64,000 nt of DNA, from positions 18,007 to 82,006 of the forward strand of contig JBATTW010000385.1 of NCBI GenBank assembly GCA_049670805.1. The letters are read 5' to 3'. Made by a program: the position numbers and the translations under genes. Each line of letters opens with the position of its first letter. Within the stretch, counting starts at the first letter, position 1. The notes below the pieces were generated by a model. That model did no database searches. It saw only the letters and a list, made by a program, of their open reading frames with translations, and was not told the DNA's origin. This document shows, in pieces, positions 14,743-60,731 of this stretch. Source of the stretch: Bacteroidota bacterium. Its GTDB lineage: Bacteria > Bacteroidota > Ignavibacteria > UBA10030 > UBA6906.

Positions 14743-14770
14743 CTTTCTACGCTCTTTTCATGTTGGGGTC

Positions 14771-14980: not shown

Positions 14981-14990
14981 GATGTGCCTA

Positions 14991-15883: not shown

Positions 15884-15977
15884 TGTGGATAACTGTTGAT
15901 CATGCTGACAGCGGTTTTGCTGATATTCATCGCCATGTGCATATCCTCGTGAATAACCCACTTTCGGGTGTTGATAA
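15884..15977. promoter_or_regulatory. Upstream DnaA-box cluster in the rpmH-dnaA intergenic region (dnaA promoter / left half of bipartite oriC)
   Basis: Perfect TGTGGATAA (rc TTATCCACA) at about 15884-15892, TGTTGATAA (one mismatch) at about 15969-15977, and weaker CGTGAATAA at about 15948-15956. Confidence 0.6.
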
Positions 15978-16000
15978 CTCCCGTATTGGTTGATATAACT

Positions 16001-17473: not shown

Positions 17474-17984
17474 CACTTCAGCAATACAATCTTTGTTCCA
17501 CAACCTTTCAACTCTCCCAGCAGTTCTACCACTACGTAGTGTCCCGATATTCCGCTGCTTCGCGCGTATGCATTCCTGTGTACTATTCTCTGTTGCACAC
17601 TAGCTTCTGATACATTGTGGAAAGGAGTGGGGAAAGTCTGTGAGTTCATGTTACCTGCCTGTGAATAGAGTCCCTCTTGCAGGGTTCCCCATGAATGGTT
17701 GCTGGAGTGTGTGGGCAGTTCATGCAGTTATCCACCCGGTTCACCCTGAGAAATTATGTAATACAAATACTACCCACTATTAGCCACTCAATAACTTAGC
17801 AACAAGATCTACCCGTTATCCACAATTCCACACTATTATTACTAATCTCTTTACTACATAAGAGAACTTATTGTATTAATAGCAGCCCCACGCTCGGTGG
17901 ATTATTTCACAAAAATTTGGTAAATTAGTAAGGTTTTGAAGCTCTTTCTGAAACGCTGCAGCCATCTCACTAGAGGAGATAGCC
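17474..17984. other. oriC core between dnaA and dnaN: DnaA boxes plus an AT-rich DNA unwinding element
   Basis: TTATCCACC at about 17728-17736, perfect TTATCCACA at about 17816-17824, GGTGGATTA at about 17896-17904, and several 2-mismatch boxes at 17500-17640. A markedly AT-rich stretch at about 17750-17880 sits in an otherwise ~60% GC genome. No credible ORF. Confidence 0.7.
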
Positions 17985-19100
17985 ATGAAATTTGCCGCCG
18001 GTAGCACCGATCTCCAGCGTACACTAAGTAAACTCAGCGGGGTGCTTCCCTCTAGGTCGACAATGCCAATCCTCGAGAATATCCTCTTTGATCTTACCGG
18101 CAACAACCTCACAATGACTGCCACGGATCTTTCTCTCACGCTTACGGTTGGAATGGAGGTTCAGGGGATAGAGGACGGAAAAGTAGCAGTTCCTGCAAAA
18201 AGACTCGTGGATACCATACGTTCGCTTCCGGACATAAATGCAACCTTTTCCGTTGATTCCGGCGCTGACAGGGTGATGATCAGTACTTCCAACGGCGAAT
18301 ATACGCTCGTTGGAGAAAGTGCGAAGGATTATCCCCAGGTTCCTCCGTTTCAGGCGGCTGGGTCATTGGAGTTTGAGACGGACGTACTGAGAGGTATAAT
18401 ATACCGAACGGTCTTTGCTGTGAGTAGCGATGAACTACGTCCCGCAATGATGGGAGTACTCTTCCAGTCTTATGAGGGAGCACTACGAGTTGTTTCCACG
18501 GACGGCCACCGGTTGGTACGGCTGGTATACCAAGGTGTGGATCTTACCGCGCTGAAGAAAGACATCATCATCCCAGCAAAGGCCCTTTCGGTTCTTGCGC
18601 GCTCCACCGATGGGAGGAAGATAGACTGTAGTTTTAGCACCACTCATGCTCGCTTTGAATTCGAGAACTCTGTTCTTGTGACGCGCTTGATCGATGAAAC
18701 CTACCCAAATTACGAGAGCGTGATTCCCGCCGAAAACGACAAGACGCTTCGGATAGATCGAGAACAACTTATTGGAGCTATTCGACGCGTCGCTCTTTAC
18801 GCAAGTGCTGCCACACACCAGGTTAGGCTGACTGTCAGTCCGGCCTCTCTCGTTATTACGGCACAAGATGTTGACTTTGGCGGAGAGGCAAAAGAGAATG
18901 TGTCCTGTGAATACTCGGCAGAGGAAATGGACATCGGGTTCAATTCGGTCTACCTGACGGACATCCTTTCACACCTCGAGGGCAGCGAAGTTCAGATCAA
19001 GTTCAGCTCACCGACGCGGGCTGCAATCGTTGCACCGGTGGAAGGTGCCGGCGAAGAAGATGTTCTGATGCTTGTTATGCCTGTGCGGCTAAATACGTGA
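17985..19100 (+). CDS. dnaN: DNA polymerase III beta sliding clamp DnaN
   Basis: 371 aa with three-domain clamp and MKF...LQRTLS N-terminus. A strong SD (AGGAGA) precedes the ATG. Confidence 0.92.
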   Translation: MKFAAGSTDLQRTLSKLSGVLPSRSTMPILENILFDLTGNNLTMTATDLSLTLTVGMEVQGIEDGKVAVPAKRLVDTIRSLPDINATFSVDSGADRVMISTSNGEYTLVGESAKDYPQVPPFQAAGSLEFETDVLRGIIYRTVFAVSSDELRPAMMGVLFQSYEGALRVVSTDGHRLVRLVYQGVDLTALKKDIIIPAKALSVLARSTDGRKIDCSFSTTHARFEFENSVLVTRLIDETYPNYESVIPAENDKTLRIDREQLIGAIRRVALYASAATHQVRLTVSPASLVITAQDVDFGGEAKENVSCEYSAEEMDIGFNSVYLTDILSHLEGSEVQIKFSSPTRAAIVAPVEGAGEEDVLMLVMPVRLNT

Positions 19101-19178
19101 GCGATGCCGAGCATGCCGTAGTGCAGAAAGCCTCGTCCGTGGCGGGGCTACTGTATTCTAGTGGAGTAATACTGACCG

Positions 19179-20301
19179 ATGGTAGTCACGGAGCTGAGAC
19201 TGAAAAACTTTCGGAACCACGTTATGACACGGCTGGAATTCGGTGAAGGTGTCAACGCGCTGGTTGGGGGTAACGGTCAGGGCAAGACAAACGTTCTGGA
19301 AGCGTTATCGTATCTTAGTTTGACGAAGAGCTTCTTTGCCGCAAACGATGCGACCGTTATACAGATCGGGAAAGAATCCTTTGAAGTTGATGGAACCATA
19401 CAGGACACGACGGGCTCCAATCATGAGGTTATGGTGAGCTACTCACGGACGAGCCGTGAGAAGGTCGTACGGGTTGACCGGAGCAAACCAGAGACGCTTG
19501 CATCGGTTGTGGGAAAGTTTCCCGTTGTTATTCTGTCGCCGGATCATGGCTCTATTTCTGCGGGAGGACCGTCGGAACGCAGAAAGTTCATGGACATTCT
19601 GCTTTCTCAGACGAGCCGATCGTACCTGGAAGATCTGCTGGAGTACCGGAGGGCGCTGCGGCAGAAGAACCGACTTCTCATGCGGGCAAAGATGGAAGGC
19701 GTCCGTCCAGGCGCGTCGCTCGAACCGTGGAGTATCAGTCTGGCAAGGCACGGAGGGAGGATCATGCGGCGCAGGCGGGATTTTGCGAAGGAATTTCAGC
19801 CGTTTGTGAGGCGTGCATATACCGCACTTGCTGAAGAGAAAGAACAACCGGAAGTGACGTATGTACCGACGGTGGCTGTTTCTCCAGACGCGCCATCGGG
19901 CGAAATTGAGAGGGTCCTGGCACAGCGTATGGAGGCGTCCCGTAGGGAGGAGGAACGGCGGGGATTGAGTCTGACAGGACCTCACCGGGATGAGTTGAAA
20001 TTGTGTATTGACAGCAGGAGGGTGCAAGAGTATGCATCGCAGGGGCAACACAAGACGCTTCTGGTTGCTCTCAAGGTTGCAGAATTCTGGTTTATGAAGG
20101 AGCGGATTACAGAAACACCGGCACTTCTGCTTGATGACGTCTTTGGCGAGCTGGATCCACAGCGTTCACGTAGAATGCTCAGCCTCGTGCCGGAAATGGG
20201 GCAGACTGTTGTGACGACGACCGACGAACGATTCTTCGAAAATGCGGTGCAGTGGAACGGTCGGAACAAGAGATACTTTGTGGAAAAGGGAGTCTGTCGC
20301 A

Positions 20302-20309
<8 letters not shown>
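19179..20309 (+). CDS. recF: DNA replication and repair protein RecF
   Basis: 376 aa with Walker A GGNGQGKTN and SMC-like signature, downstream of dnaN. Confidence 0.9.
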
Positions 20310-22675
<2,366 letters not shown>

Positions 22676-22701
22676 ATTTTTTTCGCAGTGACAGGAAGAA
22701 C

Positions 22702-25392
22702 ATGGCGAGCATAAACGAGAAGATCGTTCCGGTAGACATCGAAGACGAAATGCGAGGATCGTACATCGATTACTCGATGTCGGTCATTGTGGCACGGGCC
22801 CTCCCCGATGTCCGTGATGGGCTGAAGCCCGTACATCGACGTGTGCTCTACGGCATGCAGGGGCTCGGGCTTGCTGCCGGCCGGGCGTACAAGAAATCGG
22901 CACGCATTGTAGGCGAGGTACTCGGCAAGTATCATCCGCACGGAGATACGGCCGTGTACGATACGATGGTGCGTATGGCGCAGGATTTTTCGATGCGCTA
23001 TCCGCTGGTGGATGGTCAGGGGAATTTCGGGTCTGTGGACGGTGATTCTCCCGCGGCCATGCGGTACACAGAGGCTCGACTTTCCCGGCTCGCTGAAGAG
23101 ATGTTGAGGGATCTGCAGAAAGGCACCGTGGATTTTACGCCGAATTTCGATGAGACGCTTGCAGAGCCCTCGGTTCTTCCGGCCCTGGTCCCCAACCTGC
23201 TGGTCAATGGCGCAAGCGGGATCGCGGTGGGGATGGCGACGAACATTCCACCCCACAATCTCACCGAAGTGATCGACGGGTGTGTCGCGTTTATCAAGAA
23301 TCCGGAGATCACCACCGAAAAGTTGATGAAGCATGTTACCGCACCTGATTTCCCCACGGGGGGAATCATTTACGGGTACGAAGGCGTTCGGGAGGCCTAC
23401 AAGACAGGGCGGGGCCGTGTTGTGGTACGCGCGCGGGCGACTATCGAGACCGGAAAGAATGATCGACAGCGCATCATCATTTCGGAAATCCCGTACCAGG
23501 TCAACAAAGCAAACCTGATTGAGAAGATTGCAGACCTCGTCAACGACAAGAAACTGGAAGACATTTCCGACATACGTGATGAATCTGACCGCGACGGTCT
23601 CAGGGCGGTCATCGAGCTGAAACGAGACGCGAACGCCAGCGTCGTGCTGAACAATCTCTACAAACACACCCAGATGCAGGTAACATTCGGTGTGAACATG
23701 CTTGCCCTCGTGGACGGGCGTCCGAAGGTGCTTACCCTGAAGGAAATGACTCAGCGCTTTGTAGAGCATCGGAACGAAGTGGTCGTTCGGCGTTCCAGAT
23801 ACGAGCTGGAAGAAGCGGAGAAACGAGCGCATATCCTCGAGGGATACATCATCGCACTCGATAATATTGATGCGATTGTCAGGCTCATCAAGAAATCGAG
23901 GGACGTTGAGACCGCAAAAATCGGTCTCATGAAGAGGTTCAAACTGTCGGAGATCCAGGCGAAGGCTATTCTTGATATGCGGCTTCAGAGGCTGACCGGC
24001 TTGGAGCGCAAGAAGATCGAACACGAATACCGTGAAACGATAAAGCTCATAGAACGGCTAAAAGCGATTTTGAAGAGCAAGCAACTCCAGATGGAGATCA
24101 TAAAGGAGGAGTTGCTCGACATCAAAACGAAATACGGGGACGACCGCCGGACGGAGATCGTGTACAAAGCGGAGGAGTTCAGTATCGAGGACATGATCGC
24201 CGAAGAGCAGGTGGTTGTGACCATAAGCCATAACGGGTTCATCAAACGGTTCCCCGTGAGTGGGTACAGACGTCAGTCGCGTGGTGGACGGGGTAGCACG
24301 GGGGCAGCGACGCGGTCGGATGATTTCATCGAGCATGTGTTCGTGGCAAGTTCACATGACTACCTTCTGCTCTTTGCCAACAAAGGACGATGTTACTGGC
24401 TCAAGGTTTTTGAGATTCCGGAGGCAGGGAGAACGTCCCGAGGGAAGTCGATCGCGCATCTGATTGCGAAGCGCCCCGACGAGCTTCTTGCGTCTTTTGT
24501 ACCAGTGAAGAATTTCGAGGATCCCCTCTTTATCCTGATGATGACAGAGAGGGGTATTATCAAGAAGACATCGCTGGGAGAGTTCAGCAACCCCAGAAAA
24601 GCAGGGATCACGGCAATCGGGCTGGGGACGCACGACCGCCTCATTGACGTGCGGGTCACGGACGGCAGTCAGGATGTGGTCTTAGGAACCCGCGAAGGCC
24701 TGGCCGTCCGGTTCGATGAGAGCGAGGTTCGATCGATGGGTCGGACGGCAGCCGGCGTGCGCGCGATGAAGCTCGGTCGATCCGACAAGGTAGTTGGGGC
24801 CGTCGCACTCCGTCGCAGCGGAACAAGTATCCTCGTGGTGACAGAGAGGGGTTTTGGGAAGAGGAGTGAGACCGACGAGTACAGAGTCAGCCACAGGGGT
24901 GGAAAGGGGATTATCACCGTCCGTACGACCGACAAGACCGGGAAGATGGTCGCCATCAAAGAAGTTGTGGATGGTGACGACGTTGTCATTGTGACCAGCG
25001 GGGGGAAGGCCATCCGGCACCATGTGTCGGAAATCAGAGTTGCCGGGAGGAACACGCAAGGCGTCCACCTGATCAGACTGAGTGGCGATGATTTGGTGGC
25101 GGATGTGGCAGCCGTAGTGTCAGAGGAACGGGAAGTACCCGCCGTCAAAGCGGACGAGGGGGAAGGAGAAGGTCTGGACAGCCGGCCAGCAGCTGCGACG
25201 GATGAGATCGGGAAACAGAAAACGGTGCATTGGCCTGCAGATCAGAAGGCAACCCGGGGAGAGCAAAAGTCTTCCAGAGAAACAGGCCGAAAAGACCTGG
25301 TTGCCGTGAAGAAGCGGCGTGGCCGTACTCAGCAGACCCGGCGCTCCAGGACAGCCCGTCCTCCGGCAAAGAAGCGAGGTAGAAGGAAGTGA
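22702..25392 (+). CDS. gyrA: DNA gyrase subunit A with a ~90-aa disordered C-terminal tail that is acidic then strongly basic
   Basis: 896 aa with catalytic Tyr region ([10 protein letters not shown]), GyrA-box beta-pinwheel CTD, then a tail ending [27 protein letters not shown]. Confidence 0.95.
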
Positions 25393-25410: not shown

Positions 25411-27579
25411 TTACAGCATCCCGCTTCTCTTTCTGAGGAACCATTCGAGGGAGAGAAATACGAGGAGCAGGGCAAGCGTGTAGTGCCAGTTCCACAGCGC
25501 CAGCGATCGAACGCTCGTCTCTTTCCGCGGTGTGAACGCAGGCAACTCCAGCAGGGCAGGAGCCAGGCTGTCGATTTCGGCCGGGGCGATGTAACCGCCC
25601 CCGGTGACATGTGCAAGCTCCCTCAGGAGCTGCCTGTTCGCAGGTGTTTCCAGAAATTCTAGGTTCGTTTCTCCCACAGTGAATCTACCAGAATCCTCTC
25701 CCACCACAATCCCGTCGACCTCTGCCGAAGCGTTGTAGGAGTAGTCCCCCTGGGCGAGGCTTCTGAGCTCACCATCATACCTGCCGTTTCCCATCGGTTT
25801 GAGATCCGCTTCTCGAACGTCATCCTCACGTTCAACCGCCACGGTGATGTGCGCTCGATCTACCGGGTGTGACGTGGCGTCGTACACCTGTGCGAAAAAA
25901 GCAACCGATTCTCCTTCGTGAAAGAACGGCTTGGCGGGCTTAACTCTTACCTGTCGGCTCTCTTCACGGGATGAAAGCCACTGAATGGAGGAGGTGAGGA
26001 AGCGAGAGAGAAACGGGACAGTTTGTGGATTTCCCTGTCCCATTAATCTCCAGCGCCAGATTCCGTGGCCAAGAATGGCAAGCGACTTTTGCCCACCGAC
26101 GGCGCGGACGAGCAGAAAGGGACCGATGCCGCCCGAACTTGTGCGGCTGTGTCCGAGGACAACGGTTCCCGATTTTGTCCGGTATGTCGTCACTGTGGCA
26201 AAGAGCGGTGGGAGCTTCCCCCAGGTACCGAAACCATCGGGGGAGCCGAAAGAGAGAAGATAGTGTGATCGGTGTGCATCGGCAGGTTGGAAGTACACAA
26301 GCCGTTCTACCGAGGAGGAGACCTCAACTGTGAAAGGGATGGAGCTCGAAATCGATGCAAGTCGGCCGTAGTCAATGTGGGGGCTGCCAACGAAGAGGAT
26401 GGGTGAAGAATTCCGTTGCAGCGCTTTGTTGAGTCTATCCACGGTGGCATGTGGTGTTGATGGGGTGGGGAACCCCACAAAGACGTAGCAGTCTGCCGAG
26501 TCGATAAGCGATAACCCCAGCGCGCCTTCGTACCACCCCGACGGTTGTCGTTGGGTGAAAGAACGGACGCTGAGGTTCTGATCTTCTGTGAGGGTTTGCC
26601 GGATCGCGGAAAGATCCGGTGAGGGCATACCGGCGATAACCAGAACCCGAACTTTGGTTCGCAGGACCTTTGTGTAAAAGTCTTGCGCATTATTCTTCCC
26701 CGTCAACTCGCCCCGTAGGCGGGAAACGGAGACACGGTACTTCTGGGTCCCTTCGCTCTCTGGGGTGTAAGAAAGACGCACGTCGTAGTTGCGCGTTCCC
26801 TCACCGAAAGTAACGAGCTTGCGATCTAAGAGCTTGCCGTCCTTCTGGAGCGATACCTCAACACGGTGGTTGAGAAATCCCGAGCTTCGGAGGGTGACAT
26901 CAACAGGTGTCGGTTTTCCCGCGTATACCAGCTCGTTTGCCGCTACCCTGGAGACGAGGATATCACGTTGTTCAACGGTGTCTCCGATTCCAACGGCGAA
27001 TATCGGGAGGGCAAGGCGCTCCGCGGCGTGAACGGGATTTTTGCCTACCGTGAAGATACCGTCAGTCAGCAGGAGGGCAGCCTGCAGCTTATCACGGTCT
27101 TTCCTGAGCATGTTCAGTGCAAGCGCGATGTCCGTTCCCTTCTCGTCGAGTGCGAGAGTATCGTTTCCTGTCGGCCCATTCGGGAGGAGGGTCGTACCAA
27201 AAGTGTAGTAACGAAGTTCGACATCGTCGGTGAGACGCTCCAACGCATCCGACTGAAGCACCCCCCGCAGGATATCGGCGCGGGGTTGACCCGGATCATC
27301 GATCTGCATGCTTTCGCTGTTGTCAATCAGGACGGCGAGCGCAGGGGGATTTGTGGTGGACGAGATGATCCTCAGGAGCGGCTCGAACAGGAGGAGGGCC
27401 ATCAGGCAAAGGGACCCCGCACGAAGCAGAGAGAGGACGATGCGCTTTCTGCGCGTCACCGGAGGTACAGTATATCGGTAGAAGAGGATGGCCAGGAGAC
27501 ACCCGATGAGCACCAGCAGGATCAGAATCAGCGCAGGGCCGCCAAATATGATTTCGAAGTGGGGCATGGGCTCAATCAC
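25411..27579 (-). CDS. Membrane-anchored von Willebrand factor A domain protein (BatA-N-like two-TM N-terminus, MIDAS DNSES), MoxR-associated
   Basis: 722 aa with N-terminal two TM helices flanking RRKR, vWA with DxSxS (VLIDNSESM), and a long C-terminal region. Directly downstream of the MoxR ATPase. Confidence 0.6.
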   Translation of the reverse strand: MIEPMPHFEIIFGGPALILILLVLIGCLLAILFYRYTVPPVTRRKRIVLSLLRAGSLCLMALLLFEPLLRIISSTTNPPALAVLIDNSESMQIDDPGQPRADILRGVLQSDALERLTDDVELRYYTFGTTLLPNGPTGNDTLALDEKGTDIALALNMLRKDRDKLQAALLLTDGIFTVGKNPVHAAERLALPIFAVGIGDTVEQRDILVSRVAANELVYAGKPTPVDVTLRSSGFLNHRVEVSLQKDGKLLDRKLVTFGEGTRNYDVRLSYTPESEGTQKYRVSVSRLRGELTGKNNAQDFYTKVLRTKVRVLVIAGMPSPDLSAIRQTLTEDQNLSVRSFTQRQPSGWYEGALGLSLIDSADCYVFVGFPTPSTPHATVDRLNKALQRNSSPILFVGSPHIDYGRLASISSSIPFTVEVSSSVERLVYFQPADAHRSHYLLSFGSPDGFGTWGKLPPLFATVTTYRTKSGTVVLGHSRTSSGGIGPFLLVRAVGGQKSLAILGHGIWRWRLMGQGNPQTVPFLSRFLTSSIQWLSSREESRQVRVKPAKPFFHEGESVAFFAQVYDATSHPVDRAHITVAVEREDDVREADLKPMGNGRYDGELRSLAQGDYSYNASAEVDGIVVGEDSGRFTVGETNLEFLETPANRQLLRELAHVTGGGYIAPAEIDSLAPALLELPAFTPRKETSVRSLALWNWHYTLALLLVFLSLEWFLRKRSGML

Positions 27580-27612
27580 CGGGGAGAAAGGTGTACGGTA
27601 GACGTGCCGGGA

Positions 27613-28635
27613 TCAGGCAGAAGAGGAGGAGGGTTGGTGCGTGTCCTGCACCAGCCGCTGTATGATCTCAATGCTACTTATCCCGTCCGCTTCCGCATTG
27701 AAATTCGGCACAATTCTATGGCGGAGAACCGGACCGGCCATTTCGCGAACATCATCGATGTCAGGCGTATGTCTTCCCGTCAGCAGCGCCCTTGTCTTTG
27801 CGCCCAGAATCATGTACTGGGATGCCCTGGGGCCTGCACCCCAGCTCAGCCATTCCTTGATGAACTCGGGAGCGTGATCCGTCTTTGGACGGGTCTGACG
27901 TGCAAGGGTCACCGCGTACTCGATAACGTTGTCCGCGACGGGAACACGCCGGACAAGGTTCTGAAACAAACTAATTTGCTCCCCGCTCAGAATATGACGG
28001 ATGTCCGGCGAAAAAAGGCTGGTTGTCGATTTGACAATCTGTACCTCCTCAGCCGGCGAGGGATAGTCAAGCCACAGGTTGAACATGAAGCGGTCCAACT
28101 GAGCTTCAGGCAGAGGATAGGTTCCCTCCTGTTCGATGGGGTTCTGTGTTGCGAGGACAAAAAAGGGCTCCTGGAGTGTGTACGTCTGACCCGCAGCGGT
28201 GACTCTGTGTTCCTGCATGGCCTCCAGAAGCGCAGCCTGTGTCTTTGGAGGTGTTCGGTTGATCTCATCGGCGAGCACGATGTTGGCAAATACCGGCCCA
28301 TGAATGAACTTGAACACCTTCGCCCCCGTCGACGGCTTTTCTTCGATGATTTCTGTTCCGGTTATGTCGCTTGGCATCAGATCGGGTGTGAACTGGATCC
28401 TGCTGAATTTCAGGTCGAGGACCTGCGCAAGGGTGCGGATGAGGAGCGTCTTGGCGAGTCCAGGTACACCGATCAGGAGGCAATGACCCCGCGCGAGAAG
28501 AGCTATGAGCAATTGCTCGACAACAGTCTCCTGTCCCACGATGATCTTGGCGATTTCCCCACGCAGGGCGGCATATGCGTCCCGGAGCGCGCTGGCTGAC
28601 TCGGTATCACTTCTGGCGTTTTGTGTCTTTCCCAC
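27613..28635 (-). CDS. MoxR-family AAA+ ATPase
   Basis: 340 aa with Walker A GVPGLAKT, the MoxR-type N-terminus (ALR...I.KII.GQE) and Walker B DEINR. Confidence 0.88.
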   Translation of the reverse strand: MGKTQNARSDTESASALRDAYAALRGEIAKIIVGQETVVEQLLIALLARGHCLLIGVPGLAKTLLIRTLAQVLDLKFSRIQFTPDLMPSDITGTEIIEEKPSTGAKVFKFIHGPVFANIVLADEINRTPPKTQAALLEAMQEHRVTAAGQTYTLQEPFFVLATQNPIEQEGTYPLPEAQLDRFMFNLWLDYPSPAEEVQIVKSTTSLFSPDIRHILSGEQISLFQNLVRRVPVADNVIEYAVTLARQTRPKTDHAPEFIKEWLSWGAGPRASQYMILGAKTRALLTGRHTPDIDDVREMAGPVLRHRIVPNFNAEADGISSIEIIQRLVQDTHQPSSSSA

Positions 28636-28663
28636 GCGTACGCCCCCTACCCCCTTTCCTTGG

Positions 28664-29983
28664 TCACAGATACACCTTCCAGTAAATGTCCTGTTTCAAC
28701 TCGTCAATCCACTCCTCGTAGTCACGTACTTTCTTGTAGTTGAGGGCCAGTGCTTCCAGCTTGCGATAGTCCTGCTCGAGTGTCATGTCGTGTGCGGGAA
28801 TCCGTTCTCTTACAGAGACGATGTGATAGCCGTAGGAAGTTCCAGCCGTCAGTTTCGTTACCGGACTGATCTCTCCCGCCTTCAAAGGCGAAACGGTGTC
28901 GAGGATATTCTTGTCCAGGTTTTCGAGCTCGAACGTTCCGAGCTGTCCACCGACGAGGTTTGTCTCGGTATCCTCGGAGTATTTGCGGGCGAGCTCTGCG
29001 AAATTTTCTCCGGCCAGAGCGCGTTCGCGGAGGCGCCCCAGAAGTGCCATGGTGGAATCGTCGTCCGCCTGCGTACGTTCCATTCGGAGGAGAATATGTC
29101 TGGCGCGGACGGCGTCACCACGGCGTTCGAGGAGCTGAACGACATGGAGTCCAAACTGTGTCTCGACGATGTTGGACATCTCCCCTTCCGTAAGGGAAAA
29201 AACCGCGCTTTCGAATTCTTTGACAAACAGTCCTCGCCGAACAAGCCCCAGATCTCCGCCCTCGGCAGCGGAGCCCGGGTCTTCAGAATTTCTGCGAGCG
29301 ATGTCTGCGAAATCGGCTCCGGCTTTGATGCTGTCCAGCAACAGTTCCATTCTGGCGCGTGTGGCGGATCGGGCATCCTCACTGACCTGCGGACGCATGA
29401 AGATGTGTGCAAGCTCGACCTCCTCCGATACGCGCGGGAGGCTGTCTTTGTAGACCTGGTAGAACTGTTCAACTTCATGACGACCTACGCTCGCTTGACC
29501 AAACCGCTCCTGTTGCAGGCGCTGTGCAAGGAGGTTCTTTCGCATCTCCTCCCGGAACTCCCTACGGATACGTGAAAGCGACATGCCGTAAAGTTCCTCG
29601 AGTCGGGCTTCTGAGCCGACCTGCTGGATGCGTTGCTGGAGAACCGCGTCCAGCTGGTGCTGGACTTCTTCGTCTGAGACCGTAATACTGTCCTCGATTG
29701 CCTTGGCAATGAGGAGCTTCTCGCTGACCATGGATTCCAGCACCCGCTCCTGGAGGCCGGGCGTGTTGGGATCGACACGGTTGTTGAGAGCAAAGAAGTC
29801 GAGTTGCGCATTTAACTCCGACTGCAGGATGATTTCATCATCAACAACCGCAACGACTCTGTCAAGAGTTTGTGATGATGCCGTCCCTACAAGGACCAGG
29901 GCGACTGCTCCAATTGTGCTGAGTCTGGCGATCACCGGTAAAAGCACCTCAATTCGTTCCTTCTGTTCCCATGTCCGCGTCAA
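28664..29983 (-). CDS. surA: Periplasmic chaperone / peptidyl-prolyl isomerase SurA (two parvulin domains)
   Basis: 439 aa with signal peptide, SurA N-domain, and two PpiC-type domains (GGDLG..., FGYH/FGLH motifs). Confidence 0.8.
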   Translation of the reverse strand: MTRTWEQKERIEVLLPVIARLSTIGAVALVLVGTASSQTLDRVVAVVDDEIILQSELNAQLDFFALNNRVDPNTPGLQERVLESMVSEKLLIAKAIEDSITVSDEEVQHQLDAVLQQRIQQVGSEARLEELYGMSLSRIRREFREEMRKNLLAQRLQQERFGQASVGRHEVEQFYQVYKDSLPRVSEEVELAHIFMRPQVSEDARSATRARMELLLDSIKAGADFADIARRNSEDPGSAAEGGDLGLVRRGLFVKEFESAVFSLTEGEMSNIVETQFGLHVVQLLERRGDAVRARHILLRMERTQADDDSTMALLGRLRERALAGENFAELARKYSEDTETNLVGGQLGTFELENLDKNILDTVSPLKAGEISPVTKLTAGTSYGYHIVSVRERIPAHDMTLEQDYRKLEALALNYKKVRDYEEWIDELKQDIYWKVYL

Positions 29984-30821
29984 GGGGAGTCATCCTGATG
30001 TCGATGCGCTGGCGTGAGCGGAGGGCGGCAACAAGTTCTTCATATTTGATACGGCGACGTTCAATGAGGATGCGATCACGTATTTCCTCACGAACATAAT
30101 CCAGCTCGGGGACCTCTCCGCTTCGTTTCGTACCGTGATGTTTGATGACATAGTACCTCTGCTGACGTCGCAGGACGAACGATATCTCTTCCTCTCCCAG
30201 AGATCGGGCGAGTCTCCAGAGTTCTTCCGGATAGAGCGCGCCCCGGGTGAAGTAAAGCCGATCAACGAGCTGCAGGATATGGGGTGCCAGGTTTGTATCG
30301 GACCGCGCCTGGGTGACAGCTTCAGGCCATGGTGTTCCATTGAGCACCGTGGAGCGGAATGTGCGCGTGGCGTCGCGTGTGTCAAAACAGACGTAACTCA
30401 CACGCACAACATCGTCGGGCAACGCAAACTCGCTTGCAGCTGAGTCAAGATACGCCCTCAGGACATCCTCGGTGATGGCAAGCGTGTCGAGTTCTGAGTA
30501 CAGTTCCCTTTCGAGCAACGCGGCAATGACGAGTCTCTTTTTGGTTGACTTGAGCTGTCGCTGGACCTCTTCTGATTCGGAGAGGTCTCGCCGCAGCGCC
30601 TCCTGGTACAGCAGCTCGGTGATGATCCAGTCGTTGACATATGTTTGCGCTTGCTGGTGCCATTCGCCGGCGGTATCAACAGCAGCTTTGATGTCAGCTT
30701 CGGTGAGCTCTGACCTTCCCACGCGGGCCACATACGGGCTCTTCTGCGCATCGCGGGCACAGGAAACGAGCACAAGAAGAAGTGGCAGAAACACTAGCAA
30801 GGACGCCAGCCAACGGACCAT
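29949..30821 (-). CDS. SurA-N-domain-like periplasmic chaperone lipoprotein (no parvulin domain)
   Basis: Internal ATG at 30821 gives MVRWLASLLVFLPLLLVLVSC (lipobox), 1 nt after the upstream gene's TAG. The track's 350-aa N-extension lacks a signal and overlaps the upstream gene by 179 bp. Similar to SurA/PpiD N-terminal chaperone domains. Confidence 0.5.
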   Translation of the reverse strand: MVRWLASLLVFLPLLLVLVSCARDAQKSPYVARVGRSELTEADIKAAVDTAGEWHQQAQTYVNDWIITELLYQEALRRDLSESEEVQRQLKSTKKRLVIAALLERELYSELDTLAITEDVLRAYLDSAASEFALPDDVVRVSYVCFDTRDATRTFRSTVLNGTPWPEAVTQARSDTNLAPHILQLVDRLYFTRGALYPEELWRLARSLGEEEISFVLRRQQRYYVIKHHGTKRSGEVPELDYVREEIRDRILIERRRIKYEELVAALRSRQRIDIRMTPLDADMGTEGTN

Positions 30822-30822
30822 T

Positions 30823-33171
30823 CTACCGGACTTCCGCAAAGGCAATGTTGAGCACCTCGTTGTGTCGGACGACAGGGTACTTTTTGCGCAGCTTCTCCAA
30901 CCAGAGGGCTTCGATGCGCTTGGATTCATAGTCCTGAAACGCAGTCGAGACCTCGGGGCCTGCCTCTTCAAACGTCTTGAGGCGGGCGGGGGTACGTCCA
31001 TCCAGTCGTACGATGACGTAGTTTCCCTTCAGGTGAAACGGCTCACCAAACTCTCCTGTCGCAAGCGAGTCGGCTCGGTGTGCGCGCTCATCCGCCTCCG
31101 GTGCGAGTGTCGCGGATGTAACGGCACCGATAACGAGCGGTCTGCGGCCCGTCAGACCAAGCGAGATCGTGTGTTGATTGTTGGCTGCAGGTGAGCCCTG
31201 TGGCTTCGAGAGGGTATCGATCCGCGATGGGTCGATACCGAGTGCCTTGACCAGCTGGGAATGCAGAGAGACCAGACGGCGTGAGGCCATCCGCAAGGTC
31301 TGAGACTTGCGCTGTGTTGTGTCCGGCTGCGCCAATATCCGCACTCTGAGTGTGCTGTCTTTCCTCAGGTCGGCTGCAACGGATGATAGCAGCGTGATCG
31401 TTGTCCGGTTGAGGCGCGACGAGCGGCGGGCGAAAGAAGCCTCGAACTTTGTCAGGGCGGCCATCCGGACGGAGTCCTGCTCTGCGACATCTGCAGGAGA
31501 TAGACCGGATACCAGCTTTGTGTGGATCGCACGACCACCCGCTTCGCTGGAGGACCGAATCTCGGTGAATATCACCCTCTCTGGATAACGAAACTTCTCA
31601 CGGTTTGCCACAAAGTAGTCGTGCAGGAGGGAATCGGTGGCCTGAACTTTTTCCCATACATTCTCCTGTTCGGCCTGATAGAGGAGCACTCCCTCCGTGT
31701 ACTCGTGGACAATTGAGGCAAACTCCGGATCCGTCTTTTTGAGCCGTTCGGCCTTTGCTGCGAAAAGGAGCTGTTCAGCTATCTTGTCCAGAACCGTAAA
31801 GAGGTTGCTCGCCGTTAGGCGGACGGTTCCGAGATCGCGTCTGCCTTCGATAAGGGCTACAACAGTGTCAACAGGAAATCGCTCTCCGGCGAGAGAGAGG
31901 ATGGTTGACGCTCCGAGTGACGGAGAAATCATTGAAGCCCAGGCACTGTCTCGCGTTGTTTTCGATGAATCGAGCGACACGAAGAATTGAGCAACAACAG
32001 TGTCATTTCGACTGTACTGCAGCTCTTGCTTGAGACCCTCGAGGTACTCCCGATAGTCATCCTGAAACCGAAGGCGTCTGTAGAGGGTCTTTATTTCCTC
32101 TTGAGATTCTTCGAACGATTTCCACGGACGTCGTTCATAGCATTTGATGATATGATATCCAAACGGCGTGCGCACGATTCCGGAGAGCTCTCCCGGCTGC
32201 AACGACAGGGCAACTTCATCGAAGGGTTGTATCCAGCGTCTCCGGGCGAACCAGCCGAGATCACCGCCCTTGGATGCGCTGCCGTGGTCGTCAGAGTTCC
32301 GTCTTGCGAGCCCCGCAAAATCCTCACCGTTCGCTATGCTGTCGCGGATGGCGCTGATGCGTGTATGGGCGGAACCGGTGTCATCGGGCGTGGGTGCCGG
32401 ACGGGCAAAGCGCTTCATGATGTGGCCGCAGTGGACTTCACCGGAGGCCGGTCGTCGGTCTGTGATGCGTATTACGTGAAGACCGTACTGGGTCCGGACA
32501 GGCGTCTGGGAGAGATCACCTTTTTGCATGGCATAGGCGGCATCTTCGAAGGGGCGAACCATTTGTCCCGCGGTAAAGTAGTACAGGTCACCCTTGTTCT
32601 CCTTGGCGGTGGGGTCGGTTGAGAACTGCTCGGCGAGCAGGCCGAAATCGGTACCGGCCTGTGCCTGGGTAATGATCTCATAGATCTTGGTATACGCTTC
32701 CGTCGATTCAACAGCGGTAGGGTTAGGCTTGAGACCGATGAGAATATGGCTTGCACGAATCTCCTCGGATTTGCGGTCATAGAGTTCCCGCACACCCGGA
32801 GAGACGATCTCCCGCCCGGTGATAAATGATTGGGCGAGGCTGCCCTCGTATTGCGCGATTTCCTCCTGAACGTCTCGGCGCAGATGCATTCCCCGGTCAT
32901 GGGCCTCTGCGAGTTTGAGGCGATAGTTGATCATCAGGTCCAGAAAGTGTTCACGGTCCTCGAGGCCAGCCTTTTCGCCGTGTTCCCGGCTGCCGTTGCT
33001 TTTGATATAAAGCGCTTCGTATTCGCCGAGCGTAATGTCTTCGTTGCCCACGCTGGCGACAACCGTATCGTGTGCCTTTGGCGAACAACCCTGCAAAACG
33101 AGCAGCAACCCCAGCAAGAGTACGGGTGGCGCAACAAGGCCCCGAAAGCATGAAGCTCCGGACTGCATCAC
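30823..33171 (-). CDS. PpiC-type peptidyl-prolyl cis-trans isomerase (PpiD/SurA-like) with two parvulin domains, a lipobox signal and a ~330-aa C-terminal extension of unknown function
   Basis: 782 aa with LVLQGCS lipobox and two parvulin domains (ASHILI...GDLYYF...YGLHVI; GHIM...GGDLGWF...FGYHII). The C-terminal third has no recognisable motif. Confidence 0.75.
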   Translation of the reverse strand: MMQSGASCFRGLVAPPVLLLGLLLVLQGCSPKAHDTVVASVGNEDITLGEYEALYIKSNGSREHGEKAGLEDREHFLDLMINYRLKLAEAHDRGMHLRRDVQEEIAQYEGSLAQSFITGREIVSPGVRELYDRKSEEIRASHILIGLKPNPTAVESTEAYTKIYEIITQAQAGTDFGLLAEQFSTDPTAKENKGDLYYFTAGQMVRPFEDAAYAMQKGDLSQTPVRTQYGLHVIRITDRRPASGEVHCGHIMKRFARPAPTPDDTGSAHTRISAIRDSIANGEDFAGLARRNSDDHGSASKGGDLGWFARRRWIQPFDEVALSLQPGELSGIVRTPFGYHIIKCYERRPWKSFEESQEEIKTLYRRLRFQDDYREYLEGLKQELQYSRNDTVVAQFFVSLDSSKTTRDSAWASMISPSLGASTILSLAGERFPVDTVVALIEGRRDLGTVRLTASNLFTVLDKIAEQLLFAAKAERLKKTDPEFASIVHEYTEGVLLYQAEQENVWEKVQATDSLLHDYFVANREKFRYPERVIFTEIRSSSEAGGRAIHTKLVSGLSPADVAEQDSVRMAALTKFEASFARRSSRLNRTTITLLSSVAADLRKDSTLRVRILAQPDTTQRKSQTLRMASRRLVSLHSQLVKALGIDPSRIDTLSKPQGSPAANNQHTISLGLTGRRPLVIGAVTSATLAPEADERAHRADSLATGEFGEPFHLKGNYVIVRLDGRTPARLKTFEEAGPEVSTAFQDYESKRIEALWLEKLRKKYPVVRHNEVLNIAFAEVR

Positions 33172-33278
33172 GATGTTTCTCCATCGAACTGTTCTACATA
33201 AAGAACCTGCAAGTTGATAGTCTACCGAAAAACAGGTTGAAAATCAAGATTTTGAGCGGTTCAAGAGCCCTCGTATGC

Positions 33279-34541
33279 TCACAATCGGGAAATGGCCTGG
33301 TTGAAGTCGTGCTTCAGGTCTGCAATGTCTTCCACGCCGACCGAAATACGAACCATCCCCGGCGTCACACCATGTTGTGCAAGTTCCTCTCGGCTCATAT
33401 GCACGTGCGAGGAGTAGACGGGTATGCTTACGAGAGTCTCCGCGCCGCCGAGCGACATTGCGTTGACCGCAACACAGAGGGAATTGCAGAGCTTTGCCGC
33501 AGCCCGGGCTCCGCCTCGAACTTCGATGGTCAGCATTCCCCCAAAACCATTTCCGCCCGCTCCGACCATCTGCTTCGCCGCAATTGCGTGGTGTGGATGA
33601 GAGGGGAGACCCGGGTAGAGAACTCGCTTGACCCGGGGCAACGACTCGAGATATCGTGCAAGAGTAAACGCATTGGAGTTTTGTTTCTCTACCCGGAGCG
33701 TAAAGGTCTTGAGGCTCCGCAAAAGGAGAAACGCGGCAAACGGATCAGCACATCCTCCGTAGTATTTCAGCTGAGTATGAACGTCCCGAATAAACCGATC
33801 TGTACCGGCAACAATGCCGGCAACAAGATCTGAGTGACCTCCGAGGTACTTTGTACAGCTTTCTAAGAGAACATCAACGCCGTACTGAAACGGGTTCTGG
33901 TTCAGAATGGTTGCGAATGTATTGTCAGCCATTATTACGATACGCTTCCCGATTCTGCGTTCTGCTGCCCGCGCGCGGGAAACAAGGTCTTCGATGTCAA
34001 CTATGTCAAGGACAGGATTTGTCGGGGTCTCAAAGTACACGATCCGTGTTTTCTTCGTGGTGAGACGGGGGAGGTCCCCGAGTCTGTCGGGGGCAACGTA
34101 GGATACGGTCACCCCGTGACGCGGAAGAATGTCGCGGAAGAACCTGTATGTACCACCATAGAGCGACGGTGTGCTGATGATATGGTCACCGGCCTTGACG
34201 ACAGAGAGAATCGCCGTTGTAACGGCTGCCATGCCGGAGGAGAAGAGCAATGACCGTTCCGATCCCATCATCAGTGAGAGCCGTTCCTGTACTTGCTCGA
34301 CGGTGGGATTGTGATAGCGGGTGTAGACGAAGACATCAGGATCGCCCTGTGCATACCGGATCGCATCCGATGAATCTGCGAAGCGGTATGTTGATGTCTG
34401 CACGATTGGTGGGGCGACCGGTCCCCGGAATGCGTACAATTCTTTGCCGTGTATCGCCTTTGTCGCAATGGCTACGTTCGCAGGGTTCACAGGGGAGCGT
34501 TTCCCAGGGTTCAGGCGTTTGGATCGTGATGCTCGGTTCAT
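33279..34541 (-). CDS. Cys/Met-metabolism PLP-dependent enzyme (cystathionine gamma-synthase / O-acetylhomoserine sulfhydrylase / methionine gamma-lyase family)
   Basis: PLP-lysine motif SCTKYLGGHSD and family N-terminal region (AIHG...QTSTY.F). The true start is probably downstream of the track start. Confidence 0.8.
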   Translation of the reverse strand: MNRASRSKRLNPGKRSPVNPANVAIATKAIHGKELYAFRGPVAPPIVQTSTYRFADSSDAIRYAQGDPDVFVYTRYHNPTVEQVQERLSLMMGSERSLLFSSGMAAVTTAILSVVKAGDHIISTPSLYGGTYRFFRDILPRHGVTVSYVAPDRLGDLPRLTTKKTRIVYFETPTNPVLDIVDIEDLVSRARAAERRIGKRIVIMADNTFATILNQNPFQYGVDVLLESCTKYLGGHSDLVAGIVAGTDRFIRDVHTQLKYYGGCADPFAAFLLLRSLKTFTLRVEKQNSNAFTLARYLESLPRVKRVLYPGLPSHPHHAIAAKQMVGAGGNGFGGMLTIEVRGGARAAAKLCNSLCVAVNAMSLGGAETLVSIPVYSSHVHMSREELAQHGVTPGMVRISVGVEDIADLKHDFNQAISRL

Positions 34542-34583: not shown

Positions 34584-36260
34584 TCAACCCGGTTGCGTGT
34601 TGGGTAAGACAGGTGTGGCAAAGATGACCTTCTCTCTCTCGATGTGAACCGTACCGGGTGGAGCGCCTCTTGGTTTGCGCACGTACTTTCGATAGGTTAC
34701 GGAAACAGGAACATGCTTGGCTTTCCTCATTTTGCTGTAGTAGGCTGCAATACCGGCGGCCTGCTCCTTGGCCTTCTTACCGGGCTCACCCTTGGCCGAG
34801 GCAACACGGAGTACGACATGGGAGCCTCCCGAGCCCCGTGCATGAAACCAGAGGTCGTTCGGTCCGGCGTGCCGGAGCGTCAAGAGGTCATTGTTGGCGC
34901 TGCTCTTTCCGGCCCAAACTTCGAAACCCCCGTCGACAAGAAAGACACGAAAGGGGATCTCTTGATGCGCCTTGCTCTTCGATCTGATCCCCAACCGTCC
35001 AAGCTCTTCTCTGTGTTCGTCCATGGTTCTCCGGAGCTGTTCCCTGGTGAAGACCGTGCGGAGGAGGCGGAGCAGTTCTTCGCCGGTTCTGACCCGATAT
35101 TGCAGTTGCAGAAACCGTCGTGCCGATTCCTCTTCGGATCGTCGCGTTCGTTTTCCCTTTTCAAAGTAGCGCTGTGCCGATTTGCTGAGTGGAACCCGGG
35201 GGTCGAGTGGAATGCGGTACGAGCCGCTGTCATCATGCAATTCCACCTCCTCAGTTCCCGGGGGGATACTGTGGAGATGGGACAGAATCAACGTGCCATA
35301 GCGCTCATACTCTCTTGAGCGATGGTCTGCGGTCGGCTCAGGAGTCATAGCTGCAAGAGCCCGGTGAGCTCTCTCGACAGCCTGTCTGAGCTTTGCCATG
35401 ATCTCGCGCTTGTCGGCCTCGAGGGCAACCGAGGCGCGCTTGCGATAAACGAAGGCGCGCAATGCCTGATGGGCGTCAGAAAAGGGAATCTCGGTGAGGT
35501 TCTTCGCGTGGCGCAGAGCTATGATGGAGAAGAGAACCGGGACACCGCTCTCCGACTGGTACACCCGGGGTTGAGGGGACTCGATTTCGTGCAAGATCTC
35601 CGTGATGGAAGCACCCACGGCAGTAATCAGGGGATTCGTGATTTCGGTCGCGTGTGAGTCACCGGATGCCTCTGCACGGAAGAGAGCCTCGCTGATGAGA
35701 GTAGATCCAAGATGGGGAAAGCTCCTCCGAAGCACCTGTCGAAGCGTTCCGGTGTGCCGTCCGAGTGCTTCTGTGAGCAGCACAACCGGGTCGTCTGGAA
35801 GATCGCTTTTCCGGAAAACAAATCTCTGACCGCTCAGGGCTCGTGAATTGCGAAAGGAGTTTCTAATGTGGCAGCGATCGTCTACCAGCAGGACGTTGGA
35901 CGCGGAGCCAAACATCTGAATAAGCAAGCTCAGGTTCTGTTCAAACGACAGGGTGATGATCCTGTCGGAGGTGTGCATGGAGACAGCCAGGATTCGCAAA
36001 CCCCAGACCGACGGCATGATATCCGCCACATTTGTCTTTGCTCTTGTGTAGCCGGGGTGCAGGAAGAGGGTCTGTTCCCCTATCCTGCAGGAGACAACCA
36101 GCGCTTCATCCAGGCCCTCGGTCTCTACGACAAGCTCGTCCTTTTCCTGGGAGAACAATCTTTGCAGCCGCCTGCCGGACAGGCGAGGCACAAGGGACTC
36201 GGCCAGGAATCTGAATGTGTAGAAATTGCTGAGCATACCGTTATCAACAAATATACCCAA
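34584..36260 (-). CDS. rqcH: NFACT-family protein RqcH (Rqc2 homologue / fibronectin-binding protein A-like), ribosome quality control
   Basis: 558 aa with NFACT-N N-terminus, central coiled-coil, and C-terminal NFACT-R/DUF814 (LWFHARGSGGSHVVLR). Confidence 0.7.
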   Translation of the reverse strand: MGIFVDNGMLSNFYTFRFLAESLVPRLSGRRLQRLFSQEKDELVVETEGLDEALVVSCRIGEQTLFLHPGYTRAKTNVADIMPSVWGLRILAVSMHTSDRIITLSFEQNLSLLIQMFGSASNVLLVDDRCHIRNSFRNSRALSGQRFVFRKSDLPDDPVVLLTEALGRHTGTLRQVLRRSFPHLGSTLISEALFRAEASGDSHATEITNPLITAVGASITEILHEIESPQPRVYQSESGVPVLFSIIALRHAKNLTEIPFSDAHQALRAFVYRKRASVALEADKREIMAKLRQAVERAHRALAAMTPEPTADHRSREYERYGTLILSHLHSIPPGTEEVELHDDSGSYRIPLDPRVPLSKSAQRYFEKGKRTRRSEEESARRFLQLQYRVRTGEELLRLLRTVFTREQLRRTMDEHREELGRLGIRSKSKAHQEIPFRVFLVDGGFEVWAGKSSANNDLLTLRHAGPNDLWFHARGSGGSHVVLRVASAKGEPGKKAKEQAAGIAAYYSKMRKAKHVPVSVTYRKYVRKPRGAPPGTVHIEREKVIFATPVLPNTQPG

Positions 36261-41705: not shown

Positions 41706-42617
41706 ATGAAAAGGTCTACCGGTATGATGTTCTCTCGCACACGTCGTGAAGCACTCGGCCGGCTGTTCTGGCTCGGTGGATCCTCCCTCTTTTTTTCGTG
41801 GCAGGTGGCCAGCTGTCGGTCTGCCACGGAAATGGATGAAGACGATGAGCAGATCTTCCGGCGGAAGTTCTCGGAGGCCGCAGCCCTTCCGCTTGGCGGG
41901 AAGCCGTTTGGCGACCTTATTGCGGCTGTTGCCCTCTCGTTCAAGGGATCACCGTATGTGGCCCATTCTCTCGAAGTCTCGGGTCCGGAACGGCTGGTAG
42001 TCAATCTGCGCGCGTTCGACTGCCTGACGTTCGTGGAAAGCTCGCTTTCGATAGCCCGGTGCGTCAGACTCAAGAAGAGCTCGTTCGGTGACTACGGGGA
42101 GCAACTCCAACAGATACGGTACCGGTCTGGAATAATCGATACATACCCGAGCAGACTGCACTACTTTACCGACTGGGTCGCGGACAACCAGCGAAAGGGT
42201 ATCGTGAGGGACATGACAGCCACACTCGGGGGTGTGGTGAGGGCGGGCAAAATAGACTTCATGTCAAAGCACCGCGGATCCTACCGCCAGCTGGAGAATG
42301 ACGAGTACTTTGCCGAAATCAGCGGGATGGAGGAGCGACTCTGGAGCGCCACGTGGTACTATATTTCCCAGGATCAAGCCGAAACTGCGCTTGATAAGGT
42401 TCGGACCGGCGATATTGTCGGGATGACCTCAACTGTCAAGGGACTTGATATTGCACACACCGGGCTTGCCTATCGTTCTGGAGGCACTGTGAAGCTGCTT
42501 CATGCATCATCCTCTGGTAGAGCTGTTGAAGTGACGGAGGGTTCGCTTGCAGACTACCTCGGAGCCCAGAGGAAGCAGGACGGTCTCATCGTGGTCCGGG
42601 CTATGGACCCCGCCTGA
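41706..42617 (+). CDS. Hypothetical exported protein, DUF1460-like (amidase-like fold?), Tat-like RR motif plus possible lipobox (VASC)
   Basis: 303 aa. The ATG directly abuts the dnaB TAA. N-terminal SRTRREALGRLFWLGGSSLFFSWQVASC. Family assignment is from memory of the YFTDW-containing DUF1460 motif and is tentative. Confidence 0.4.
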   Translation: MKRSTGMMFSRTRREALGRLFWLGGSSLFFSWQVASCRSATEMDEDDEQIFRRKFSEAAALPLGGKPFGDLIAAVALSFKGSPYVAHSLEVSGPERLVVNLRAFDCLTFVESSLSIARCVRLKKSSFGDYGEQLQQIRYRSGIIDTYPSRLHYFTDWVADNQRKGIVRDMTATLGGVVRAGKIDFMSKHRGSYRQLENDEYFAEISGMEERLWSATWYYISQDQAETALDKVRTGDIVGMTSTVKGLDIAHTGLAYRSGGTVKLLHASSSGRAVEVTEGSLADYLGAQRKQDGLIVVRAMDPA

Positions 42618-51832: not shown

Positions 51833-51902
51833 CGAACCCTCCCCGGTACGGGATCTATCACAGTGAGTTGCCTGCTTCAGCACTCTTCCCTATCTTCGGT
51901 GT

Positions 51903-60709: not shown

Positions 60710-60731
60710 GAGTTTTTTTCTCCTCGCCCCG

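Follow-up and report, generated by a model that had tools for sequence, protein, structure and literature searches.

The 64,000-nucleotide stretch of DNA described here, referred to as the window, comes from an uncultured, Ignavibacteria-like Bacteroidota bacterium (GenBank assembly GCA_049670805.1, contig JBATTW010000385.1) and contains an origin-proximal cluster of five co-oriented minus-strand genes, all of which are found in the open reading frame (ORF) listing at the positions given to them in an earlier, sequence-only reading of this DNA. The first three genes code for chaperones of the SurA/PrsA/PEB4 type, namely a 782-aa lipoprotein (PPI782), a 290-aa lipoprotein (P290), and the 28664-29983 product (SurA439), and these are followed by genes for a MoxR ATPase and for a 722-aa membrane protein containing a domain of the von Willebrand factor A (vWA) type. 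By homology, the cluster belongs with the MoxR (MRP) and BatA-like vWA systems, and what sets it apart is its fixed attachment to SurA-type chaperones, an arrangement that we did not find described in the literature searched. We read it as a lineage-specific, reduced MRP-type MoxR/BatA envelope module attached to a SurA-type chaperone operon, with a probability of roughly one-half.

The five genes are closely packed. The PPI782/P290 junction reads TAG-a-ATG, such that P290 starts 1 nt past the upstream stop codon, as had been claimed, and the gaps flanking moxR are likewise as first reported, with 28 bp between surA and moxR and 33 bp between moxR and the vWA gene, the latter spacing being 33 to 45 bp depending on the vWA start used. 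The probable start codon of SurA is GTG 29947, which follows the P290 TGA by 1 nt, rather than TTG 29983 of the longest ORF, giving a junction of TGA-g-GTG, and the 35-nt P290/surA overlap is thus likely an ORF-calling artifact; the SurA ortholog of a closed genome is annotated with a length of 429 aa. The signal scan finds no terminator-like site in either gap around moxR, so that the 28-bp gap offers none to separate the PPIase (peptidyl-prolyl isomerase) genes from moxR. In the NCBI annotation of a "Bacteroidota bacterium" metagenome-assembled genome (MAG), the same five genes are in consecutive order, with MoxR named "MoxR family ATPase," the vWA gene started at ATG 27567 (718 aa), and its product listed as "hypothetical protein."

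This gene order is widely conserved. Scanning a genome collection with a single representative for each GTDB species gives 344 loci with relatives, and the best 80 of these were examined, all of them from MAGs labelled Ignavibacteria, Ignavibacteriota, Bacteroidota, or "Chlorobi." The full order PPI782-P290-SurA-MoxR-vWA is present in 30 loci, and 15 others share this order except that a gene for an ∼700-aa S8 subtilase separates moxR from the vWA gene; in seven loci, MoxR-(S8)-vWA is retained but SurA is not directly upstream, in another seven a vWA homolog has no adjoining MoxR, and 21 are too short or only partly informative. Ignavibacterium, a genus with cultured members, is among the relatives that have the cluster (L075). 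Complete clusters are present in 45 of the 61 loci with enough flank to judge gene order, in keeping with the synteny expected of a single module. The flanking genes sort into at least three unrelated sets, and the cluster has therefore persisted through rearrangements. Junctions of 100 bp or less are found between PPI782 and P290 in all 46 loci, between P290 and SurA in all 45, and between SurA and MoxR in 45 of 48, and the conservation of gene order and of these very short junctions extends over a clade that is Ignavibacteria/Kapabacteria-like.

The chaperone genes code for three distinct proteins. SurA439 is a classical SurA, as proposed from sequence alone, with a signal peptide, a SurA_N domain (Pfam, 3e-13), two Rotamase stretches, and a C-terminal helix; it matches NCBIfam SurA at 4e-37, both catalytic histidines can be read in each of its parvulins, and it is a soluble periplasmic protein by this architecture. 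It also aligns with the N-terminal half of PPI782 (29% identity, E 3e-32). PPI782 had been described as a lipoprotein with two parvulin domains, which agrees with two Rotamase domain matches and with a lipobox cysteine, Cys29, that is invariant in 42 homologs; its top match by both sequence and fold is SurA, and its N-terminal half aligns to Escherichia coli SurA at E 7e-38. Its C-terminal 330 aa were considered to be of unknown type, a description that does not stand, as an AlphaFold2 (AF2) model (pLDDT 89.6) and a profile of the insert resolve another helical chaperone module and a third parvulin-like domain that is histidine-less and is interrupted by an OmpA-like insert. The insert profile matches YiaD (8e-10), Acinetobacter baumannii Omp38 (5e-9), OprF, and Pal (range, 8e-10 to 1e-5); Pfam OmpA (PF00691) scores 21.9 bits in the window protein, below the threshold of 27.2, and is recorded in most homologs. 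In the OmpA_C-like fold, a conserved Asp and Arg 15 residues apart bind the peptide stem, and PPI782 residues D617 and R632 are invariant, have this same spacing, and match the OmpA motif; the insert is thus probably peptidoglycan binding.

P290 is a lipoprotein, as had been proposed, with an LVSC lipobox whose Cys21 is invariant in homologs. It is not a SurA-N-only protein, however, as its profile matches PEB4 (3rfw, 1.2e-7) and PrsA (8e-5) almost end to end, and Rotamase_2 (PF13145), although below threshold in the window protein, is present in most homologs. No histidine is invariant among 33 homologs, and the catalytic histidine positions are occupied by Ser or Tyr. From these profiles, P290 is placed among the PrsA/PEB4-type chaperones; its one parvulin-like domain is degenerate, and the protein is unlikely to be active as an isomerase. 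We do not propose that PPI782 arose as a fusion of SurA and P290, because the hhalign comparison of the P290 family with the C-terminal half of PPI782 is not significant (3% probability). Relative to known SurA, PrsA, and PEB4 chaperones, SurA439 has the full SurA architecture, PPI782 is SurA-like in its N-terminal half, and the P290 profile is PEB4/PrsA-like, whereas PPI782 differs in being a lipoprotein and in having both an additional chaperone module and an OmpA-like insert, and P290 in lacking the catalytic histidines.

The AAA_3 model (PF07726) is matched along its whole length by the MoxR protein at 2e-64, and AAA_lid_2 (PF17863) at 2e-14; Walker A (GVPGLAKT) and Walker B (VLADE) motifs can be read in the MoxR sequence. 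It is 58% identical to the MoxR of a more distant locus (L083) where it adjoins DUF58 and BatA genes, and, as is characteristic of the MRP subfamily, the adjoining downstream gene codes for a vWA protein whose MIDAS (metal ion-dependent adhesion site) is complete. By these sequence features, it is a cytoplasmic MRP-type AAA+ ATPase. A secondary Pfam match to bpMoxR (3e-11) would suit a conflict or antiphage system similar to the MoxR-vWA-beta-propeller ternary systems described previously (PMC7159879), but AAA_3 is a far better match, PADLOC gives no matches for any of the five proteins, and the cluster is chromosomal, origin proximal, and vertically conserved, and codes for no effector, beta-propeller, or variable domains, nor do effector or beta-propeller genes adjoin it; a conflict role is exceedingly improbable and effectively refuted.

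The 722-aa protein itself has no Pfam or NCBIfam match, but it belongs to a large family whose architecture is represented by 11,254 50%-identity cluster representatives at E≤1e-30, and PF00092 matches 30 of 68 aligned family members. The MIDAS-containing vWA domain noted in the sequence-only reading is well supported; the motif is complete in the 68-homolog alignment, with D86, S90, and D173 invariant and S88 and T149 nearly so (≥90%), and among solved structures the family profile picks out vWA domains, those of BatB and of an aerotolerance-related membrane protein included, with E values from 7e-11 to 1e-6. The profile also matches CARDB domains, a GATase1-like protein, and macroglobulin (A2M) MG domains, and the AF2 model (pLDDT 88.6) has a beta-alpha-beta vWA fold at residues 68 to 197. 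The N terminus, proposed to be BatA-N-like with two transmembrane (TM) helices, resembles BatA only in architecture, with a pair of TM helices joined by a basic loop, and by hhalign, which pairs the family with the PF07584-bearing BatA/VWA protein of L083 (98.8% probability, E 1e-16) from TM2 onward; Pfam BatA (PF07584) matches none of the 68 members, and NCBIfam also gives no match.

The loop and the C-terminal tail of the 722-aa protein are rich in Lys and Arg and the N terminus is not, and because of this positive-inside charge pattern the ∼620-residue body is predicted to be periplasmic and the loop and tail cytoplasmic, such that the vWA protein would share a compartment with the three chaperones. 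The domain types of the ectodomain are typical of extracytoplasmic proteins, and the vWA domain of the BatA-like BB0173, which has a homologous architecture, is periplasmic by experiment (PMC5700661). No segment of the protein is more conserved than its eight-residue C-terminal tail. The best Foldseek match in the PDB for the C-terminal ∼400 residues is OST48/Wbp1 (TM-score 0.46 on the target, E 1e-9), with which it shares, at the fold level only, a GATase1-like/GIFT-type alpha/beta domain, a beta-sandwich, a C-terminal TM helix, and placement on the noncytoplasmic side; unlike the 722-aa protein, OST48/Wbp1 has no vWA domain or N-terminal TM pair, the identity is 11%, and the resemblance in the model is one of fold and topology that does not imply a shared function.

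Table 1. Genes of the chaperone-MoxR-vWA cluster and its upstream neighbors (window nucleotides), and domains of PPI782 and the 722-aa protein (residues)
Feature	Position	Strand	Description
PPI782 gene	30823-33171	minus	SurA-like lipoprotein; 782 aa; 781 aa from ATG 33168
P290 gene	29949-30821	minus	PrsA/PEB4-type lipoprotein; 290 aa
surA	28664-29983	minus	439-aa ORF; likely start GTG 29947, giving 427 aa
moxR	27613-28635	minus	MRP-type AAA+ ATPase
vWA membrane protein gene	25411-27579	minus	722 aa; 718 aa from ATG 27567
Intergenic gap 5' of PPI782 gene	33172-33278	minus	107 bp
Cys/Met-metabolism PLP enzyme gene	33279-34541	minus	Pfam assignment
NFACT/RqcH-like gene	34584-36260	minus	Pfam assignment
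PPI782, lipobox	29		Cys29
PPI782, SurA-N-like helices	37-134		
PPI782, parvulin 1	136-241		H142, H232
PPI782, parvulin 2	245-348		H250, H340
PPI782, second helical chaperone module	390-530		
PPI782, third parvulin-like domain	532-570 plus 685-737		His-less
PPI782, OmpA-like insert	∼575-674		D617, R632 invariant
PPI782, C-terminal helix	738-764		
722-aa protein, TM1	16-33		followed by basic cytoplasmic loop (predicted)
722-aa protein, TM2	43-64		
722-aa protein, vWA domain	68-198		predicted periplasmic; complete MIDAS
722-aa protein, CARDB-like beta-sandwich	206-306		
722-aa protein, GATase1-like alpha/beta domain	310-536		
722-aa protein, MG/Ig-like beta-sandwich	544-636		
722-aa protein, small alpha/beta domain	649-694		
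722-aa protein, TM3	699-718		
722-aa protein, C-terminal tail			conserved, basic; RKRSGML

The reported absence of a DUF58 partner extends to the whole window, in which none is found by phmmer with two DUF58 references or by Pfam analysis of all twenty otherwise unexamined ORFs of 240 to 480 aa. Neither DUF58 nor DUF4159 is present within ±10 kb in the 80 related loci or in the window, and the block and its flanks have no separate BatA gene, second vWA gene, or tetratricopeptide repeat (TPR) gene; a DUF58 adaptor could be encoded elsewhere in the genome. The membrane anchoring of the vWA protein had been viewed as unusual, but such a partner is normal for this class of MoxR, as seen in the operons of distant homologs. 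One (L088) codes for FHA-MoxR, DUF58, BatA/VWA_2, and then a vWA/GATase1_like protein, and L083 codes for DUF4159, MoxR, DUF58, and BatA/VWA. These distant vWA homologs (∼25 to 28% identity) are found in classical operons or standing alone, and never with PPIases. A Bacteroidales MAG (L081:8498-12763) has a vWA homolog with 25% identity directly after dnaA and before a DUF4159 gene; it is origin proximal like that of the window, with a DUF58 gene 3 kb away on the opposite strand and no MoxR within 10 kb.

The cluster is most readily compared with the classical MoxR-DUF58-BatA(TIGR02226)-vWA/GATase1-like operon, of which Rhizobium leguminosarum RL3499-RL3502 is an example, RL3499 being reported to matter for membrane integrity and cell morphology (PMC3893208). 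The MoxR of the cluster shares this type (AAA_3), as its identity to the L083 protein illustrates, and the 722-aa protein is homologous to both of the membrane partners in the classical operon, with 28% identity to the L088 vWA/GATase1_like protein. In contrast, the cluster has no DUF58, no separate BatA, and a single membrane partner, and the pair is appended to three SurA-type genes and, in relatives, flanks an S8 gene. Bat operons typically code for moxR, DUF58, batA and batB (two TM-vWA proteins), batC/batE (TPR), and batD. Here, as in the Bat operon and Borrelia BB0170-BB0176, where MoxR comes first and is followed by membrane vWA proteins with N-terminal TM segments, MoxR is combined with a TM-vWA protein, and the 722-aa family profile matches the solved BatB and aerotolerance-related vWA domains; however, DUF58, the BatC/BatE TPR proteins, and BatD are absent, MoxR is not the first gene, and the vWA protein, which also has CARDB, GATase1-like, and MG-like domains, is double the length. 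Because there is no DUF58, second membrane partner, or TPR gene, the cluster has the composition of neither the Bat operon nor the four-gene operon. RavA-ViaA, NorQ-NorD, CbbQ-CbbO, and CoxD-CoxE also pair MoxR with one vWA/MIDAS partner and no DUF58 (in part, PMC3893208), but their vWA proteins are soluble and cytoplasmic and their MoxR proteins are of other subfamilies, whereas a periplasmic vWA domain is predicted for this cluster, whose MoxR is MRP type. From these sequence comparisons, the cluster is best described as a trimmed and relocated version of the widespread MoxR-DUF58-BatA module and not as a new kind of system.

A working model for this reduced MoxR/BatA module, which we consider about as likely as not, is that the five genes are cotranscribed, in which case the envelope chaperones and the MoxR-vWA pair would be made together. 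The vWA ectodomain would act as a metal-dependent (MIDAS) periplasmic docking platform for envelope proteins, a candidate client in many relatives being the type IX secretion system (T9SS)-secreted S8 subtilase whose gene separates moxR from the vWA gene, and MoxR would act on the platform from the cytoplasm, either by way of the loop and C-terminal tail, both basic and conserved, or with the help of a DUF58 adaptor encoded at another site. The overall role would be in envelope-protein maturation or homeostasis, as the reported membrane-integrity phenotype of the related Rhizobium RL3499 MoxR suggests (PMC3893208). The sequence-only reading had proposed a dedicated envelope maturation or quality-control module, and synteny, the lack of a terminator, and the predicted shared compartment are all consistent with this; even so, the interpretation was overstated, as a membrane-anchored vWA partner is normal for this MoxR class, the absence of DUF58 is shown for the window and for the ±10-kb flanks of 80 relatives, the link to the chaperones is broken in seven loci, and much of the subclade synteny reflects inheritance. 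A bolder version is a trans-envelope machine in which ATP hydrolysis by MoxR is transmitted through the basic loop and invariant EW..R..G tail of the three-TM vWA protein to the periplasmic platform, working with peptidoglycan-tethered and soluble SurA-type chaperones, thereby providing ATP-powered folding or quality control in the ATP-free periplasm without DUF58, but we consider this decidedly unlikely.

Several observations weigh against a chaperone-coupled MoxR/BatA module. The PPIase-MoxR link is broken in L006, L007, L011, L015, L042, L055, and L070 with MoxR-(S8)-vWA intact, and in L011 MacAB-like ABC-transporter genes precede moxR instead of SurA; the seven vWA homologs without an adjoining MoxR are more distant. 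In the subclade of the window, ∼22 kb is collinear, including the unrelated NFACT, Cys/Met PLP enzyme, gyrA/B, and dnaB genes, and much of the synteny within the subclade therefore reflects inheritance and is weak evidence. surA is also found in functionally mixed operons elsewhere, such as lptD-surA-pdxA of E. coli. The usual MIDAS-AAA contact is not available to an ATPase in the cytoplasm and a vWA domain in the periplasm, and DUF58, the normal cytoplasmic partner, is outside the cluster. There is a strong sigma-70-like match in the 5' coding region of surA (TTGACA, 17 nt, GATGAT; 29865-29837, minus strand) that could be an internal promoter. Lastly, a 1,061-aa MoxR-vWA fusion (P0043) is a frameshift artifact, as there is a 1-nt indel in moxR, and the true stop codon and next ATG are intact; it derives from a nanopore MAG (L033:9900-10010, contig CAWKHH010000001.1) in which two other genes also have split matches, and it calls for caution in fusion-based inference from nanopore-derived assemblies. 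Functional coupling of the chaperones to MoxR-vWA is plausible, on the basis of synteny.

Much of this evidence also bears on whether the arrangement is simply an operon of convenience, in which the PPIases are general outer-membrane-protein chaperones and MoxR-vWA is an independent downstream pair with no functional link to them; their adjacency would then stem from inheritance of gene order and from housekeeping expression in common. Such an explanation, the main alternative, is quite possible, if short of probable. It accounts for the seven loci in which MoxR-(S8)-vWA stays together without the PPIases, for the subclade collinearity that extends over unrelated genes, and for the distant vWA homologs that occur with MoxR-DUF58-BatA or alone, and it fits with our finding no description of MoxR linkage to SurA/parvulin gene clusters in the literature searched. 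It does not readily account for an order of five or six genes that persists among no fewer than three unrelated sets of flanking genes, for junctions that are uniformly tiny, or for the location of every product but MoxR in, or facing, the periplasm.

The S8 subtilases in related loci are of interest as possible clients. In ∼30 of the 80 loci, the gene for the ∼700-aa S8 subtilase directly precedes that of the vWA protein, with moxR usually on its other side (e.g., L020:5420-7513 and L032:7777-9993); the S8 start overlaps the moxR stop codon, such that the two are translationally coupled, and the protease carries a T9SS C-terminal sorting domain (Por_Secre_tail). The S8-vWA adjacency outlasts that of MoxR, being kept without an adjoining MoxR in L065, L072, and L073. 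These features raise the possibility that an ancestral six-gene unit folds, holds, or activates the S8 protease en route to type IX secretion and that the window lineage has lost or moved the protease gene; the PrsA/PEB4-like nature of P290 is in accord with this, as secreted Bacillus subtilisin depends on PrsA. Nonetheless, there is no S8 homolog in the 64-kb window, the subclade of the window has no S8 gene in the cluster, the 30 complete clusters without S8 keep all five other genes, and the protease may be a passenger gene and not a client, and we regard subtilase maturation as an unlikely primary role. The PPI782 OmpA-like insert (residues ∼566 to 692, window ∼31100 to 31480) and S8 are nearly mutually exclusive, in that insert-bearing loci lack S8, whereas S8 is present in 16 of 18 loci without the insert; the pattern probably marks a split between clades, although it could be compensatory.

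MoxR/BatA modules of the MRP type occur very widely and are poorly understood, and this clade offers a stripped-down version with one ATPase and one membrane partner, no DUF58 in the cluster, and periplasmic chaperone genes as fixed genomic neighbors, joined in relatives by a gene for a T9SS protease. It sharpens the questions of how a cytoplasmic AAA+ ATPase communicates with a periplasm-facing vWA protein and of whether the clients are envelope or secreted proteins. Domains can now be assigned to a protein that NCBI annotates as hypothetical, and PPI782 can be described as a predicted SurA-like lipoprotein into which an OmpA-like domain is built that probably binds peptidoglycan.

The five-gene block is the distal portion of a seven-gene codirectional run starting at 36260, with the NFACT/RqcH-like gene first and the Cys/Met PLP enzyme gene second. 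These two genes may share a transcript with the block but are functionally unrelated to it, and they are conserved upstream only in the subclade of the window (19 loci); a YicC-like endoribonuclease gene is divergent from the run at ∼36400. The only sizeable intergenic space in the run is the 107-bp gap before the first PPIase gene. It contains a possible promoter, a weak sigma-70-like site (TTGATT, 33247-33242; 17 nt; TAGACT, 33224-33219) that was read by eye and is below the promoter-scan threshold, and inspection of the gap by eye gave no TAnnTTTG motif of the Bacteroidetes type. The sigma-70 scan has 7 matches compared with 3.4±2.4 in shuffled sequence and the terminator scan 14 compared with 9.6±3.6, and because these counts are near the shuffled expectation, internal signals are neither supported nor excluded by the scans. 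Rfam identifies no RNA family in the window.

The genes of the origin region (12937-25392) are yidC on the minus strand and dnaA (15968-17473), dnaN (17985-19100), recF (19179-20309), gyrB, and gyrA on the plus strand, and there is a GC-skew sign change and minimum near 17 to 18 kb. Because the minus-strand block directly follows this origin-proximal plus-strand run, it is oriented head-on to replication, and the gene order and GC skew agree with the earlier description in this respect. The ∼500-bp noncoding region between dnaA and dnaN (17474-17984) is a candidate oriC. The gyrA stop codon is 18 bp from the convergent stop codon of the vWA gene, and GyrA has a long, very basic, Lys/Arg-rich C-terminal tail (residues ∼830 to 896; 25180-25392). 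Elsewhere in the window, a minus-strand 317-aa ORF (59789-60742) matches no Pfam family at E≤0.001, and genes for peptidoglycan recycling or turnover are dispersed at 7702-8622, 41706-42617, and 50675-51883, coding for a MurQ-like SIS protein, an AmiA-like amidase, and the anhydro-MurNAc kinase AnmK.

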